Shown: positions 2,835 to 31,700 of the stretch, piece by piece | How the letters are laid out: every line of letters begins with the position of its first letter | How positions within the stretch are numbered: position 1 is the stretch's first letter | Virus record (IMG/VR): IMGVR_UViG_3300042691_012617 | Location: 1-64,000 of that record | Source of the DNA: a virus | Strand: one strand, 5' to 3' | DNA length: 64,000 nucleotides | Made by a program: the position numbers and the translations under genes | The notes under the pieces: model-generated | Database searches by the model: none | Told to the model about the DNA's origin: nothing | Seen by the model: the letters and a program-made list of their open reading frames with translations, nothing else

Positions 2835-3764
2835 ATGGGTAAAACGCTGATTACAGGCGGTTGGGGTCTCGTCGGTTCCGAGATCCCCGATAGCGAACAA
2901 TACAAGAGACCCCGACACGCAAGCATGGACTTGTGTGGTTCTTATAACACCGATGTCCGCGATGCGATGCATCAATTCGACATCAGCGAGGTCATTCACC
3001 TTGCAGCCAAGGTCGGTGGGGTAAAGGGCAACAACGACAACATGATGTCCTACTTCATGGACAACATGGTGATGAACACGAACATTCTTCGTGCTTGCTC
3101 TGAGTTGAAGTCGATCAAGAAGGCAACCTTCATGCTCTCCACCTGTGTCTTCCCTGCAAAGGTGACATATCCCGTGGACGAGTTGCAACTCCACAACGGC
3201 GAACCACACCACACCAACTATGGATATGCATATGCAAAGCGTATGCTTGAGGTTGGTGCGCGTACTCTTCGTCAGAACGGAAAGCAAGCGCGGTGCATCA
3301 TCCCGTGCAACATCTACGGCAAGAACGACAACTATGACATCGTCAACGGGCATGTGATCCCGAGCCTGATTCATAAGTGCTACCTTGCCAAGAAGAACGA
3401 CACCGAACTTGTCGTTTGGGGTAGCGGCGATGCCGAGCGTGAGTTCATCTATGCTCCCGATATCGCACGGGCGGTCGTGGAGATTCATAACGATGATCGC
3501 AAGGACGATGCACTAGACCTGATGATCGTCTCGCCCAACATCTCGTACAAGATCCGCGACATCGTATTCATGATCGCGGACTGCTTCGACTTCACGGGAA
3601 AGATTGTGTTTGACATCACTAGTCCCGAGGGTATACTTCGCAAACCAACATCTGCCCACAAGTTCAGGAAGTTCTACCCGAACTTCAAGTTCACGGGCAT
3701 TGAACAGGGGATCGCAGAGACATGCAAGTTCGTAGAGGAGAACTATGACAGCCTTCGCAAATGA
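2835..3764 (+). CDS. fcl: GDP-L-fucose synthase
   Basis: TGGxGLVG, HLAAKVGG, LSTCVFP, YAYAKR (YxxxK), PCNIYG, HVIPSLIHK and WGSGDAEREF motifs. Confidence 0.95.
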   Translation: MGKTLITGGWGLVGSEIPDSEQYKRPRHASMDLCGSYNTDVRDAMHQFDISEVIHLAAKVGGVKGNNDNMMSYFMDNMVMNTNILRACSELKSIKKATFMLSTCVFPAKVTYPVDELQLHNGEPHHTNYGYAYAKRMLEVGARTLRQNGKQARCIIPCNIYGKNDNYDIVNGHVIPSLIHKCYLAKKNDTELVVWGSGDAEREFIYAPDIARAVVEIHNDDRKDDALDLMIVSPNISYKIRDIVFMIADCFDFTGKIVFDITSPEGILRKPTSAHKFRKFYPNFKFTGIEQGIAETCKFVEENYDSLRK

Positions 3765-4776
3765 GTGGAATGGAAAGACTGCCGTCATCACGGGAGTCAA
3801 TGGGCAGGACGGATCCTACCTAGCCGACATGCTTGTCGCCAAGGGCTACAAGGTGATCGGTCTGAAGCGTCGAACATCGACCATCACAACTGGTCGCATC
3901 GACCACCTGTACGACAACCCGCTGTTTAAGATGCATCACTATGACTTGCTTGACGGTGCTGCGGTGTCGCACATCATCTCGCAGTACAAGCCCGACGAGT
4001 TCTATAACTTGGCGGCACAGTCGCATGTTGCCGTGTCTTTCGAAATCCCCGAGTACACATCGGACGGTATCGCGGGGGGCACACTCAAGATCCTTGAGGC
4101 TATCCGCAGCCTCAGCCCGACTACTCGCTTCTATCAGGCATCCTCATCCGAGATGTTTGGCGACAGCGATGATTACGATCCGAGCAGAGGCTACGACGAA
4201 GAGAGCCGCATGATGCCCGTCTCGCCGTATGCCGTGGCGAAGTTGCATGCCCATCACATGACCCGCGTATATCGAAACGCATATGGTCTTCATGCATCGT
4301 CGGGCATTCTCTTCAACCATGAGAGTCCCCGCCGTGGCGAGACATTCGTGACCCGAAAGATCACGATGGCGGCAGCGCGGATCAAGATGGGCTTGCAGAA
4401 GGAACTGCGTCTAGGCAACCTTGATGCCATGCGCGATTGGGGATTCGCGGGTGACTATGTCGAAGCCATGTGGCTCATGCTTCAGCAGCCCGAGGGAGAT
4501 GACTATGTCATCGCCACACAGCAAACTCATACCGTCCGCGAATTCCTGAATGTCGTGTTCGAAGAGGCGGGGCTTGATTGGCGCAAGTATGTGGTTATCG
4601 ACCCCAAGTACTTCCGACCCAACGAGGTGCCCTTCCTGTTGGGAGACCCCGCCAAGGCTAAGGAAAAACTTGGTTGGTCTCCGAAGGTAGACATGCCACT
4701 CCTTGCAAAGATTATGTACAAAAGTGACATGGCAGAGTTGACAAAGCAGTTGCAAGGCGGTACAGTATATGTGTGA
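3745..4776 (+). CDS. gmd: GDP-mannose 4,6-dehydratase
   Basis: ITGVNGQDGSYLA, NLAAQSHV, FYQASSSEMFG, SPYAVAK, LFNHESPRRGETFVTRKIT and LGNLDAMRDWG motifs. Confidence 0.97.
   Translation: MTAFANEWNGKTAVITGVNGQDGSYLADMLVAKGYKVIGLKRRTSTITTGRIDHLYDNPLFKMHHYDLLDGAAVSHIISQYKPDEFYNLAAQSHVAVSFEIPEYTSDGIAGGTLKILEAIRSLSPTTRFYQASSSEMFGDSDDYDPSRGYDEESRMMPVSPYAVAKLHAHHMTRVYRNAYGLHASSGILFNHESPRRGETFVTRKITMAAARIKMGLQKELRLGNLDAMRDWGFAGDYVEAMWLMLQQPEGDDYVIATQQTHTVREFLNVVFEEAGLDWRKYVVIDPKYFRPNEVPFLLGDPAKAKEKLGWSPKVDMPLLAKIMYKSDMAELTKQLQGGTVYV
4738..4766 (+). promoter_or_regulatory. sigma70-type promoter within the gmd 3' end, driving the downstream RNA
   Basis: TTGACA(4738-4743)-17 nt-TACAGT(4761-4766); predicted +1 at about 4773. 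Confidence 0.7.
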
Positions 4777-4967
4777 CGAAAGGGGTTCGCCCTTGCCAAG
4801 GTTCGCCAAGGCTAGTCACCGTGTGCCTTCGGGCACACGCTGAACATCTTCTGACGCTACCCCGCTGCATGATCGATTGTGGTGAGGTGGTGAAAAAAGC
4901 GGCTTAATAATCGGATCCGTGTCGCTCAGAAAACTCAGCCCCCGCGAGTTCGAAATCGCGGGGGTTG
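4773..4967 (+). ncRNA. putative structured non-coding RNA, family not recognised
   Basis: Own promoter; GUGAC/GUCAC closing helix; three UUCG-capped hairpins; long-range helices GCUGA/UCAGC and UUCUGA/UCAGAA; crossing helices; 3' GC-rich hairpin. Confidence 0.65.
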
Positions 4968-4978
4968 TGCTTTTAGGC

Positions 4979-5006
4979 TTGACTTGTTTGTGACTGATGC
5001 TACAAT
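4979..5006 (+). promoter_or_regulatory. sigma70-type early promoter
   Basis: TTGACT-16 nt-TACAAT with extended TG; the ATG at 5014 lies near +1, so the mRNA is likely leaderless. Confidence 0.7.
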
Positions 5007-5013
5007 CTACGGT

Positions 5014-5373
5014 ATGACCTTACCCTACGAGCAATACCTAGCGATCAACAACACGCGAGAGTTTCTGTTCTCCCTGATGGATCCTCAGCGGACACCTAAG
5101 GCACCCCGATATCTCCGTGAGAGAGCGCGTCAGTTGCTGAAGCATTTCCCAACCGAGTACGATGCCAACGAGTTGGTGAAGGCTCATACTGAGTGGCTTC
5201 ATGAGATCAACACCAAGAAGACCGATGTCGAGCGAGGCAACCCTGTCGAATACAGCCCCCGCTATGGCGGTTGGATCTTTTGGGATGAGACATCGACTCA
5301 GCCAAGCAAGCCATACCTGACGAGGCGTGATGCTCAGGATGCCCTCAATCGCTACATTCAAGACCTAGGGTGA
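5014..5373 (+). CDS. BPSL0761-like phage protein with a C-terminal extension
   Basis: MTLPYEQ...TREFL..L.DP..TP..P...R..A..LLKHFP pattern. Confidence 0.65.
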   Translation: MTLPYEQYLAINNTREFLFSLMDPQRTPKAPRYLRERARQLLKHFPTEYDANELVKAHTEWLHEINTKKTDVERGNPVEYSPRYGGWIFWDETSTQPSKPYLTRRDAQDALNRYIQDLG

Positions 5374-21651: not shown

Positions 21652-23562
21652 TCAGGCTCCGACCTCGCTGAAGTTCACGCCTGTACGAGTGGCGATGAAG
21701 TTCAACTGGATGAAGTTGATGCTGCGATTCGGCTTGATGTAGATATCTGCAACAAACCGATTGCTATCGATTACTTCAGGCGTGTTGTTCTTCTCATCAC
21801 AGACAACCTTGAAGTCGATGAGACCACGACGAGCCTGAACATCACGGAGGAATGGTTCGACAAGCGAACGGAACTGTGCGCGTGTGAAGGCATCGTTGAA
21901 CTCAAAGAGGCTGTACTTCGCGGCGGTGGCGATTGCCTTCTCAAGCACGATGAACAGACGGCGCACATTGATGCGGTCGAATGCAGAGGGCTTGGCTTGG
22001 GCAGTCTTGTCGCCGTAGAGGACGGTTCCTTCACCCGAGAAGGTGGCAACAGGATTGATGCCATTCTTGTACAAGGTGTCTCTAGAAGCCTGACGGGGTT
22101 GGAACGCCAACTTGATCACGCCACGAACCTGACCACGGTTGAAGCCTGCGGGGCTGTACCAAGGATCAAAGTTCGCATCAGTACGAGCGCAGAGACCCGC
22201 GATGTCGCCGTTCAGCGGCACCCAACGGTTCTTGTCGTTGTAGATGTCGTACATGTACTTGTAACCGCTGTCGATCACGCAGTACGAGGACGAACCAATG
22301 TTGTTGCGATACTGAACAGCACGATCCTGCTTGACCTGATCGGTCTCGTTTGGATCCTTGTTGGGCACCGAAAGGAATGCAACGCAATCCTTACGAGCAT
22401 CAACGATGTCCTTGATCGAAGGAGCAACGAGATCGGCAACAGAAGTTGTGAGATCGGTAGCGGGAGTAAATGTCTTATCGGGACCACCGATGATGAGATT
22501 GACATCAACAGTCTCAGCATCGGCAAAGAGGCGGTAACCCTCAGGATCTGAATCGGTATCCTGACCGAAAGCAACCTTCATGTAGTCGGTCAGATCGGCA
22601 GTCTTGCCGTCCTTACCACCCTTGAGTTGCCACACGCCAACACCGAACGAACTGTTGGTCGCGGTGATGCCCGAAGTAGCAGCAAGCGATGCTCCTGTAT
22701 AGTACTTGAGCGCATCGCCAGTACCCCATGCACCTGTTGATCCACGGAAGAGATCGTTGTAGGAAGTGTTGTTTGCCTTCTTGACGGCAGCGATGTACTT
22801 CGATGTGCGATTGATACGGTCAACATAGTAGTTGCTTGTACCATCCGAAGAAACCACACCTGGGAGGAACGACAGACCTTGGAACTTCTCAAGGATTGTG
22901 TTGCGAGTTCCCGAAAGGAGACCATTCTTGTCGATGACAACCAAGTGGAATTCGTCGTTTGCACCGCCAAGATCAGAGACATAAGTCGTGCTGTTTGGCT
23001 TGGCATCGAATTCATCACCATAAGACCAATTGCTGAAGTCGTTGCCCGCAGCGGTGTATCCCGAAGCGGTGATGCCTGTGCCTGTAACTGCGACAGTCGC
23101 GCCACCGCAGATTTGAACCTCAAGGGTATTTCCAAGGGCACCCGCATAACGAGCGACAAAAGAACCAATCTTGGTAACATCTGCAAACTCAAACTTATCA
23201 TCGTTTTCGATCATTGCTGCATCAGAATCCCAAACAACAGAGCCACCCGCACCTGTTGCGGTCGCGCCTGTATAACCATAACCGTTGGCATTGACCATTT
23301 CGTCAATCTTGGCACGAACGACCTGAAGATTGTTGCCGTAACCAAGGAAGTTGGCGGCGGGGAACCACCACTCAGCAACATTGTCATCGGGTGCGCCGAA
23401 AAGTTGAACGAGGTTATTTTCGCTGTCAACGAGGATTCGCTTGTTGCATGGGCCCCAATTGAATAGACCCACGATGCCTGCATTGGTTGTCGCAACAGCA
23501 GGGACGATTGTGGTCAAGTCCTTCTCTGTTACATTCACGCCTGGGGAAAGTTGGAATGCCAT
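21652..23562 (-). CDS. gp18: tail sheath protein
   Basis: MAFQLSPGV..TEKD, PWYSPAGFNRG, FDRINVRRLF and IKPNRSINFIQLNF. Confidence 0.99.
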   Translation of the reverse strand: MAFQLSPGVNVTEKDLTTIVPAVATTNAGIVGLFNWGPCNKRILVDSENNLVQLFGAPDDNVAEWWFPAANFLGYGNNLQVVRAKIDEMVNANGYGYTGATATGAGGSVVWDSDAAMIENDDKFEFADVTKIGSFVARYAGALGNTLEVQICGGATVAVTGTGITASGYTAAGNDFSNWSYGDEFDAKPNSTTYVSDLGGANDEFHLVVIDKNGLLSGTRNTILEKFQGLSFLPGVVSSDGTSNYYVDRINRTSKYIAAVKKANNTSYNDLFRGSTGAWGTGDALKYYTGASLAATSGITATNSSFGVGVWQLKGGKDGKTADLTDYMKVAFGQDTDSDPEGYRLFADAETVDVNLIIGGPDKTFTPATDLTTSVADLVAPSIKDIVDARKDCVAFLSVPNKDPNETDQVKQDRAVQYRNNIGSSSYCVIDSGYKYMYDIYNDKNRWVPLNGDIAGLCARTDANFDPWYSPAGFNRGQVRGVIKLAFQPRQASRDTLYKNGINPVATFSGEGTVLYGDKTAQAKPSAFDRINVRRLFIVLEKAIATAAKYSLFEFNDAFTRAQFRSLVEPFLRDVQARRGLIDFKVVCDEKNNTPEVIDSNRFVADIYIKPNRSINFIQLNFIATRTGVNFSEVGA

Positions 23563-28717: not shown

Positions 28718-31700
28718 TTAGATCGGAAGTTGTTCCGAATCTCCCTTGATTGTGTCTTCGGGCGTAGCAGTATCAACAAGGGTGGTCAAGTCGGTCTTGC
28801 CGACTGTCATGAGAATCTTGGAATTGATTGCCTGAACACGACCAGTACCAATGAGACGGGAGGTCTGAACACCCGTGACGAAATCGGTTCCCGTCTTACC
28901 TTTTGAGCCTCCAACCGTGGAGAGTAGGTCAGGACTAGACACATTTGAATTGATTGCAAGCACCGCAAACTTGTTATCTTCGGTTCCCTGTTGAATTCCT
29001 GTTGTCCCACCGCTCTTGCTGAATCCTGTGTCGGAAAGGATGCGGACAAAATCCTTGATTCTGACATTTGCATTGACCGCAAGCACGCCTGGACCGATGA
29101 TGTCCGTATCGCCCATGGAAACACTTCCATTGAGAACCGTGGTTGGGGCGCGGTTGCCCTTGATGTGTGTCTTGCCGATCTTATCCAAGTCGCGGGTGAT
29201 GTTGATTGTACCGCCGTTGTCTGTGATCACAGGGAACGAGTTGCGGGAGAAGATTGCCCCCGCAGCCTCGGCATTAGATCCGCTGTCGGCTGCAAGCCCA
29301 TAGTAGGAATCGGATACTGTGCAATGCTTGAGGACAATCGTTCCACCATTCGTGGCATGTGCTGCCACGGGATAGTTGAGGAACATCGAATCTCTGGCCC
29401 TAATTGTCCCACCGTCCGTCTGCAATCCAATTGCGTTGCTGTAAACCCCGCCTGTTACGAACGAGGAGAACGCGGGGTCGTTGAGTGCCGATGTGAGGGA
29501 GCGATTGATGAATGCAATTCCATCGCCATCTGTCGCACCGACATCCCAAGCACCGATATATGTCCGAGTGTTTCTTCCTGAGAACACAGCACCGTTTGGA
29601 GATGTCGTGCGAATCGTCACGCCATACACATCGACAGAGTTGATGTAATTGGTGAATGTCTGATTTAGGAGATTGCCGAAAGTCATCGAACCTTCGTTCT
29701 TGACATGCAGCGTGAAGTACTGTCCGCTGATGCCAACAACTTCGTGACCACCGATCAGCATGTTCATAACACCACCCGTGCCGCTTGTGATGCCATCGAA
29801 GCCCGACGAAATGCCGTTCGATGCTGTCGTACCCGCTACCAATGCAAGCGGTGGGAGGAAGCGTACTGCGCTCCCCGTGGCAGCAATCATGCTCTGTGCC
29901 GTGCCAATGTTTACTTGAAGTGCAAAGCGAGTGCTATCCGTGGCACCCAAAGCCGTGTAAAGAGGTAGGAATGTGATTCCCTGTACTGTCTGTGTGACAA
30001 GGCTACCCTGCTCTGCGCGGATATAAAGATCGCGGTCAATGTAGTTGAACCAAGGCTGATTTAGCGTATACACACCGCGTGTAAGAATGATGTCAAACGG
30101 CGTTGCGAATGCCGAAGCCGAATCATTGATCACCGATAGGTTGTACACCGTTGAACGATTGATCTTGACATTCGGATTTGGGGAAACCGTGAGCGGCTTT
30201 GTAAATCTTCCGTACTGGAAGGTGCTTTCATTCACGGAGTCGGTTGGATCTCTGTAATAGAAAGGTGCTTCTGTAGAGGGTGCGATGTTGTTTGCAGTAA
30301 ACACGGACATTGCATAGTTGAAATCTGTCGGATAGAGCGGATCCATCGACAGATTCTGACCAAGGAATGTCTTGTTCGGATTGCCAACGATGCCGTTCTT
30401 GTAAACAGAGTCAGGTGACAGCCAAATTGACTTGGCACCATTCCCATCACCACCGACAAAATTACATACACAGTCATTACCATCAGGCCCTGCGGGGCCA
30501 GCGGGGCCTGCGGGACCAACAGGCCCTGCGGGGCCAGCGGGGCCTTGACTGCCTGCTGCGCCATCGTTGCCATCTGCCCCGTCCTGACCATCACAAGTTG
30601 TAAGACCAAATGTTGCACCAGTACAACTTGCACCCGTGAACCCCAATACAAGAGTCCAACATCCTGCGGTTTTTGTATTGCTGACCACATAGACAGAACA
30701 GCCCGCGTGACCGCGTGGACCAATTTCGATTCCTGGTCCTTGGAACTGACGGTGGCGAATGATCCAGTTCGTTGCCACATAAGGCGGCATCATTGAAATG
30801 GGTTCGTTGTCTGCCGTGAATCCCGCTTCATATGAAGTGGTTTGGGTGACATCTACTGTGCGCTGTGCGGCTGCAATTGCAATTCGGTTTGTTGCGCCAA
30901 CGGAGTCTGTCTGTGTGGTGTACAGATAGTTGCTGTGATCGGGGATTTCATCCGATGCGAGTAGGTGTGTATCGTCGCCGCCGATATCCCCCCGCTTCAG
31001 TTCGCTAAGACCCGAAGAGTATCCAACGCCAAATGCGGTTCTTGCCCGCATGTCGGGAATGAAGAATCGATCACAGGTTGCTCCAGTAGCCTCTCCTGCT
31101 TGGAGTGACTGAATGGTTACCTGAGAACTTGCGACAGCACCGCTGAAATCTACGGGAGTACAGCCTGGGTATGTTCTCTTGTATTGGAACCGCGCTTGAA
31201 CTGTATTTGCACCCGTCAACGATCCGATTGCATAGTCGTTTGTACCACCCCAACCAATCTTATAGTCACGATTTGTATCGTTGTTATATGCATCGACAAG
31301 ACCGTGTGCAGTCGTACCAGGGTAATCCTCATGCCCCTCAGCGGAGAACGAAATGATGATGTCCCGAGCCGTGTTACCAACAGGGCCAGTCGTACTAGAA
31401 ACAAGACCAGTTACCTTGTACTTGTCTCCAATGATCTCATACAAGTGGCTGTAGATCTCGCCATCGATAGGAGTTGCACCCGACTTGCGAACGGCAGCAC
31501 CATCGCAGATTCTCCATGTGGAAGGAACTGTTTGGAAACTACCCGCCCACGGAATCATAGACCCAACAGGTGAAAATAGAGATGCGCTAGATGTCTGAGG
31601 CAGGGCATTGATCACGAACCCCTTGTCGGTGTCGGTTGCAACGATCATGCCCTGAATGTAGGAAGCCCCGTCGAATGGGCGGATTGGTGTCAGATATCCC

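Follow-up and report, generated by a model that had tools for sequence, protein, structure and literature searches.

Stem-loops that form at the 5′ terminus and stabilise the transcript are known in bacterial and phage mRNAs, as in the 5′ UTR of Escherichia coli ompA, and small RNAs of the DapZ or MicL type are derived from 3′ UTRs, with a promoter inside the upstream coding region. Few non-coding RNAs are known from phages, and very few of these have comparative support. Structured RNAs have also been described ahead of homing endonuclease genes; leaders that sequester the ribosome-binding site (RBS) are known for the T4-type genes I-TevI, segB and mobE (PMC2988022), and the lariat-capping (GIR1) ribozyme lies upstream of intron homing endonuclease genes (PMC2219692).

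The DNA analysed here (the window, 64,000 nucleotides) comprises the first 64 kb of an IMG/VR record that is 168 kb long. The virus that carries it is a freshwater T4-like cyanophage, with Synechococcus myophages as distant relatives. We hold with moderate confidence that window positions 4738–4975 form a non-coding RNA unit of ∼200 nt, the pistol-less form of a phage RNA family built on a three-way junction (3WJ). A stretch of 203 nt has a folding energy of −87 kcal/mol (z = −4.5), which none of 200 shuffled sequences reaches. No open reading frame (ORF), tRNA (ARAGORN), tmRNA or Rfam family accounts for this region of the window, and the description of the RNA as unclassified in the initial annotation is borne out by an Infernal comparison with Rfam, in which no family matches.

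Two genes of the fcl-gmd pair run up to the element. The first, fcl, is an epimerase/dehydratase-family gene (2835–3764), and the second, gmd, encodes GDP-mannose 4,6-dehydratase (3745–4776, + strand; Pfam PF16363, E 2e-121). A σ70-type promoter, TTGACA-17-TACAGT, sits in the last gmd codons at 4738–4766 (+ strand), with the −35 hexamer at 4738–4743, a 17-nt spacer and the −10 hexamer at 4761–4766; it matches the consensus at 10 of 12 positions, as had been proposed from the sequence. Because the promoter lies within coding sequence, gmd may account for part of its conservation. The −10 hexamer ends at 4766 and helix P1 of the 3WJ begins at 4773, which agrees with the spacing of 5–7 nt seen in the family, and the RNA would start at about 4773, the first base of the junction. 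The gmd stop codon (4774–4776) falls within P1, so that the RNA region is also the 3′ UTR of gmd. Upstream, CTAAATA, which resembles a cyanophage late promoter, occurs at 2810–2816, ∼20 nt ahead of the fcl-gmd genes; the fcl-gmd message may thus be late, in which case the small RNA region would serve as a late 3′ UTR as well.

The 3WJ itself occupies 47 nt (4773–4819, + strand) and scores 77.6 bits with model R1 and 66 bits with model R2. P1 pairs 4773–4777 with 4815–4819 and encloses two UUCG-capped hairpins. It is followed by the junction strand J1 (GAA, 4778–4780), by P2 (4781–4794), by P3 (4795–4812), which contains a 2×2 A/A internal loop, and by J3 (UA, 4813–4814), which precedes the return strand of P1; the two hairpins are assigned from sequence and fold. 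This arrangement has the three helices of the family and its junction pattern, with GAA(A) after P1, P2 and P3 directly adjoining, and UA leading into the return strand of P1. Models R1 and R2 find a single copy in the 168-kb genome. A weak candidate for a second copy in the window, at 28868–28949 (13.5 bits), is contained in an opposite-strand ORF of 1102 aa and is treated as a chance match.

Directly abutting P1 is a further UUCG-loop hairpin of 8 bp (4820–4839, + strand), present as annotated and recognised from its sequence and fold. It is lineage-specific, occupying the place held in relatives by a pistol ribozyme or a terminator, and an exact-match search of IMG/VR found no further copy. 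UUCG-capped hairpins are about twice as frequent over the whole window as in shuffled sequence (20, compared with 9.9 ± 3.2 expected), and longer ones, with 6–9 pairs, begin at 4820, 13724, 25960, 28750, 33255, 39030, 47284 and 47760.

The segment that follows is predicted to fold into a Y-shaped body (4849–4931, + strand), consisting of a closing helix and two hairpins, the first long and G·U-rich and the second with a 17-nt loop, separated by an A-run. This body includes a mini-ORF (4869–4910), whose end had been likened to a tmRNA tag, and two crossing helices, taken as a possible pseudoknot; from these the initial annotation had derived the idea of an RNA that interacts with the ribosome or serves as a decoy. 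Both the ORF, with its two terminal stop codons, and the crossing helices can be read in the sequence as described. The nested fold of 4849–4932, however, is worth −29.1 kcal/mol, compared with −10.2 kcal/mol when the longer crossing helix is forced, a difference of ∼19 kcal/mol, and crossing helices of similar size arise in 29 of 500 shuffles. The mini-ORF lacks an upstream Shine-Dalgarno sequence and occurs in none of the relatives, and neither ARAGORN, run on the window, nor Rfam finds a tmRNA. The ribosome-interacting reading had rested on the tag, the mini-ORF and the pseudoknot; nothing now supports it, and we consider it highly improbable. More generally, no homologue of the body and its adjoining hairpin (4820–4935) was found in 207 fetched loci or in cultured phages, which weakens any claim of action in trans. 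Kinship of the body with the domains that follow pistol ribozymes in relatives was considered on account of the similar Y-shaped layout and A-run, but was set aside, as there is no sequence or profile match in the 207 loci. Antisense or seed matches of the RNA within its own phage genome extend to at most 14 nt, no longer than those of shuffled sequences.

The unit closes, as annotated, with an intrinsic terminator-like element (4936–4975, + strand). Its hairpin (4936–4967) has 12 pairs, nine of them G-C, and five of the next eight bases are T, giving a U-rich tail with an interrupted U-tract. A G+C-rich terminator likewise closes the unit in relatives. In the window this terminator would end both the small RNA and the fcl-gmd message.

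The next gene has a separate promoter of its own, TTGACT-16-TACAAT with an upstream TG (4979–5006, + strand; 10 of 12 positions), and the RNA is consequently its own transcription unit here. The corresponding ORF, 5014–5373, begins 195 nt past the 3WJ, behind both the terminator and this promoter. As the −10 hexamer ends only 7 nt upstream of the AUG, the ORF appears to be made from a leaderless mRNA in the window. The region was compared between the window (4979–5016) and the equivalents in two relatives, L024 and L010; in three others (L002, L003 and L028) the equivalent ORF has a Shine-Dalgarno sequence and lacks a promoter of its own. Searches of Pfam and PHROG assign ORF 5014–5373 to no family, and its AlphaFold model (pLDDT 81.5) has no Foldseek match in the PDB.

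Comparisons with related phages give the clearest view of which parts of the RNA are conserved. Relative loci were gathered through the downstream ORF and through degenerate DNA patterns in which all stem positions were left free, and yielded 16 distinct cyanophage-type copies of the first 47 nt. Nine of the 17 base pairs vary on both sides among 15 cyanophage-type copies, with far lower values in slid controls. The proposed GUGAC/GUCAC helix closing a junction of two UUCG hairpins is thus confirmed by covariation as well as by its presence. The homologue and covariation check that had been suggested for the whole RNA gives a divided answer, in that the 3WJ is conserved and covarying and 4820–4935 is without homologues. 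The broader proposal of a functional phage non-coding RNA with its own promoter fares similarly, being supported by the comparison with relatives, with conservation limited to the first 47 nt. The covariation of the stems, whose sequence is not kept, also disposes of a palindrome recognised by protein at the DNA level, and the presence of a single copy per genome argues against a repeated promoter-stem-loop cassette.

The relatives also bear on the start of the RNA. In eight loci (L009, L010, L014, L021, L023, L027, L030 and L031) gmd has its own terminator and is followed by a free-standing promoter in the same phase, the −10 hexamer ending 6 nt ahead of P1; in all, a promoter ending 6 nt upstream of P1 is kept in 11 distinct relatives. 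These free-standing, in-phase promoters are the best evidence that the hexamers within the window gmd constitute a genuine promoter, from which the RNA starts at about 4773. In L010-type phages gmd, its terminator and the free promoter are three separate parts, whereas in the window lineage the end of gmd, encoding the C-terminus, incorporates the promoter (window 4720–4776 compared with L010:940-1175). A similar stretch of ∼20 nt is common to the gmd end and the promoter region, suggesting that what lay between them was deleted. Read-through of the gmd stop codon was rejected as an explanation of the junction, since its frame relative to the junction varies between loci and some copies are intergenic.

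What follows P1 differs among these relatives. In nine of them a pistol ribozyme (RF02679; 35.6–48 bits) begins directly past P1 (L009:1010-1076, L010:1219-1285, L014:725-792(-), L021:3172-3239(-), L023:3530-3597(-), L024:799-866(-), L027, L030 and L031). The cleavage-site dinucleotide of these copies is AU or GA, not GU; bases other than GU are permitted at this site in a published analysis of the pistol class (PMC4604425). We found no report of pistol ribozymes in cyanophages in the literature. In the window no pistol ribozyme is detected at the gathering score (34.5 bits) or at E values up to 10. In L005, L007 and L028 a terminator comes right after the junction, giving RNAs of 76–87 nt, and in L002 and L003 the junction is followed by a hairpin, a ribosome-binding site and the next ORF. 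Four further cyanophage-type copies (L032, L034, L035 and L044) have no recognisable promoter and come after a stop codon.

The proximity of the pistol ribozyme raises the question of whether the 3WJ could itself be catalytic or a processing signal. It would then either cleave itself, as a new motif, or be cut by an RNase, and the downstream RNA would be released from the upstream message. Self-cleaving RNAs of different classes are often found close together, the pistol ribozyme adjoins the 3WJ in nine loci, and many copies of the junction come after a stop codon or a tRNA. Moreover, as read from the sequence, J1 together with the first P2 pair and the closing pair of P1 resembles half of a hammerhead core. 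The hammerhead strand with the uridine turn is missing, however, no ribozyme family matches even at E values up to 10, and processing is unnecessary wherever a promoter is in phase. We regard a catalytic or processing role as quite improbable. Membership of the hammerhead class was considered and rejected, as only the GAA strand is present, with neither a CUGANGA strand nor a match to an Rfam hammerhead model.

The junction is not confined to cyanophages. Two wider searches were made, one in which both loops and the arm lengths were relaxed, and one anchored solely on the P2 hairpin of the commonest form; the latter found the motif on more than 120 contigs among the matches listed. The family comprises at least ∼100 distinct phage copies. 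A model built from the cyanophage copies alone detects loci outside that group, namely leaders of nuclease genes, at E values from 1e-5 to 1e-9, although such model E values are rough and model-fitted alignments lean toward the structure of the model. Among 42 distinct copies, 13 of 17 pairs vary on both sides, with support for all three helices, and the covariation score is 0.555, compared with 0.144 for shuffles and at most 0.10 for slid controls. Among the matches listed, 58 copies come from a search pattern in which UA was not demanded ahead of the P1 return strand, and all of them have it; in the same copies the closing pair of P1 covaries and the stem sequence of P3 is free. Several other bases are fixed by the search patterns, so that their apparent invariance is partly a matter of ascertainment.

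The promoter phase extends to this wider family. Promoters matching the consensus at 10 or more of 12 positions end 10–12 nt before J1 in 34 of 98 distinct loci among the matches listed, and elsewhere within 130 nt upstream only one promoter of this quality occurs in those 98 loci. The junction would thus usually be the first thing transcribed, in keeping with the start at about 4773 first suggested for the window. Other copies come after TATAAT-only or late-type promoters, or after the 3′ ends of tRNAs. The module is not always 5′-terminal, given the four cyanophage-type copies that lie behind a stop codon without a promoter and the similar placement of the U-run class described below.

In its commonest setting the 3WJ heads nuclease ORFs of the HNH, EndoVII, GIY-YIG and DUF559 types, in more than 100 phage contigs (loci L045–L171, for example L165:3930-3993:- and L051:1395-1458:+). 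In these leaders the P3 loop is mostly 6 nt long and has at least 21 different sequences; it is exactly complementary to a site 5–14 nt past P1 that typically ends 7–9 nt before the start codon. This site is the Shine-Dalgarno region, with which the loop covaries; complementarity is found for 27 of 31 clean loops among the matches listed and for none of 31 in each of three controls. These data suggest that in the nuclease leaders the P3 loop pairs with the ribosome-binding site and masks it. In the window, the P3 loop is UUCG and has no such complementarity to a Shine-Dalgarno region; since both loops are UUCG caps, the contact is absent here.

Several of the fetched loci contain other structured RNAs. 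In a number of them tRNA arrays adjoin the nuclease cassettes; a group I intron lies at L047:10168-10434(-) (80 bits), a short match to the tmRNA model at L049:6399-6479 (52.8 bits), and DUF2815 RNAs at L045:6319-6377 and L069:3198-3258 (65.4 bits).

A third class of junctions has UUCG-type loops and a U-run directly past P1, and is found at gene ends (L048, L050, L054, L057–L060, L065, L073 and L074, and also L076, L085, L093, L098 and L099, which are Planctomycetota MAG contigs). A conserved hairpin lies just upstream in this class, the branched fold looks like a terminator, and some contigs have two copies.

The abundance of nuclease leaders invites the reading that the window element is a leftover. 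A homing-nuclease cassette would have lost its gene and left behind its promoter and leader, from which an RNA without a separate function is still made. Nearly all copies with a pairing loop do precede HNH, EndoVII, GIY-YIG or DUF559 ORFs, the element is single-copy per genome, and the segment past the junction is wholly different between lineages. A decaying remnant is nevertheless difficult to reconcile with the window and L010, which differ at only 2 of 47 junction positions although the neighbouring ORF is 43% identical; across the relatives the junction and promoter phase are kept while the flanking protein falls to this level, and compensatory changes have accumulated. In addition, no nuclease gene or fragment adjoins any of the cyanophage-type copies, and an intact pistol ribozyme lies within the same unit in relatives. 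We consider the leftover explanation unlikely.

The uneven conservation within the 3WJ could point in another direction, that of a sensor. J1, J3 and the base of the P2 stem are fixed whereas P1 and P3 covary freely, as might be expected of an aptamer for a small molecule or protein, and the module is combined with three possible read-outs, namely the pseudoknot between loop and Shine-Dalgarno region, the U-run past P1, and a terminator hairpin abutting P1 that is followed by a ribosome-binding site and ORF (L002, L003 and L028). The window copy would then be a riboswitch-type leader that has been terminated. Yet only about eight unpaired bases are conserved, part of this conservation reflects ascertainment by the search patterns, and the genes under control are nucleases rather than metabolic genes. 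In the window no alternative pairing connects the junction with the terminator, which lies 115 nt away, and Rfam riboswitch and leader models give no match to the window junction. A sensor is possible on this evidence, if not likely. With similar reserve we put forward a more general reading, in which the 3WJ may be the core of a widespread class of phage regulatory RNAs, ligand- or protein-sensing or catalytic, that gate homing-nuclease genes through a loop-RBS pseudoknot and that T4-like cyanophages have recruited to begin a small RNA, in some cases in fusion with a pistol ribozyme.

Database comparisons suggest that the junction family is new. Rfam 15 contains no model for any of the three junction classes. 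Searches of the window and 34 related loci, both at gathering score and at E values up to 10, return nothing at the junction; the relevant matches in these loci are the pistol ribozymes, in relatives only, and the others are weak terminator look-alikes below the gathering score. Among cultured phages, BLAST with the window region gives no match, and short junction queries find the motif only in Escherichia phage EP_H11 (OP688485.1, leader at about 22,487–22,575; L075:1494-1557), the remaining matches being chance occurrences inside genes. In bacterial genomes a strict pattern has no match and a loose pattern has 24, about the number estimated to arise by chance; five of these are strong with R2, all on Planctomycetota MAG contigs. 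The junction motif was not found in the literature. It may be among the 8,495 candidate phage RNAs, all unnamed, that were catalogued in 2023 (PMC10690425). The junction family thus appears undescribed.

Taken together, the most likely function of the 3WJ in the window is that of a protective 5′-terminal module, heading a stable early small RNA that would double as the gmd 3′ UTR. A host-type promoter would start the RNA at the first base of the junction and an intrinsic terminator would end it ∼200 nt later. The junction, a self-contained module that is conserved at what would be the extreme 5′ end of transcripts in many phages, would lock this end into a compact and very stable fold, and the fold may in turn shield the RNA from decay that depends on access to the 5′ end, of the RNase E or RNase J type. 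The outcome would be a stable small RNA made early in infection, and the same sequence would be used a second time, as a structured 3′ UTR for the fcl-gmd message, which may be late. Any trans-acting function would presumably be carried by the lineage-specific body (4820–4935). For protection, a simple hairpin would suffice, and the invariant junction bases are left over. Because these fixed bases exceed what simple protection needs, a sensor role is possible, and a catalytic role is far less probable.

Whatever its precise role, one compact fold recurs in three contexts. In cyanophages it opens a small RNA, in some relatives it adjoins a pistol ribozyme, and in other phages it forms a leader shared by many unrelated homing-nuclease genes. 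It offers a handle on how free-standing nuclease genes stay quiet inside phage genomes, and on the natural role of pistol ribozymes. As EP_H11 is a cultured coliphage, its leader copy is directly testable in E. coli.

The closest relatives of the window RNA are the pistol-bearing units (RF02679), which share its promoter, its 5′ 3WJ, its gmd neighbourhood and its G+C-rich terminator; in place of the pistol domain, the window has a plain UUCG hairpin and an unrelated body. By its sequence, the window RNA belongs to none of the pistol, hammerhead, tmRNA and riboswitch families. It has in common with the hammerhead a three-way junction in which the GAA strand leads into an A-U pair and the neighbouring helix is closed by a C-G pair, but the CUGANGA strand is absent from the 3WJ. 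The GIR1 ribozyme (PMC2219692) is comparable only by analogy, as a structured RNA at the 5′ end of a homing-endonuclease message; it is catalytic, related to group I introns and located in eukaryotic introns, and has no relation to the 3WJ in sequence or fold.

Stabilisers of the ompA type are alike in placing a stable helix at or beside the first transcribed base, although they are plain hairpins, whereas the 3WJ is a branched fold with fixed junction bases and a presumed stabilising role. With small RNAs of the DapZ or MicL type the window RNA shares a promoter in the last codons of the upstream gene, here gmd, and a terminator common to RNA and mRNA; it differs in that no target is known and that seed matches within the phage genome do not exceed chance. 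The leaders of T4 homing endonucleases (PMC2988022) offer the nearest parallel to the wider family, most members of which precede nuclease genes and have a loop that pairs with the Shine-Dalgarno region, to the same end. The T4 leaders, however, are unrelated simple hairpins, whereas the 3WJ is one conserved fold common to many nuclease families, and the window copy has neither a nuclease gene nor an anti-Shine-Dalgarno loop. In its mode of working, then, the window RNA resembles 5′ stabilisers and 3′-UTR-derived small RNAs and, through the wider family, the RBS-masking leaders of T4 (PMC2988022).
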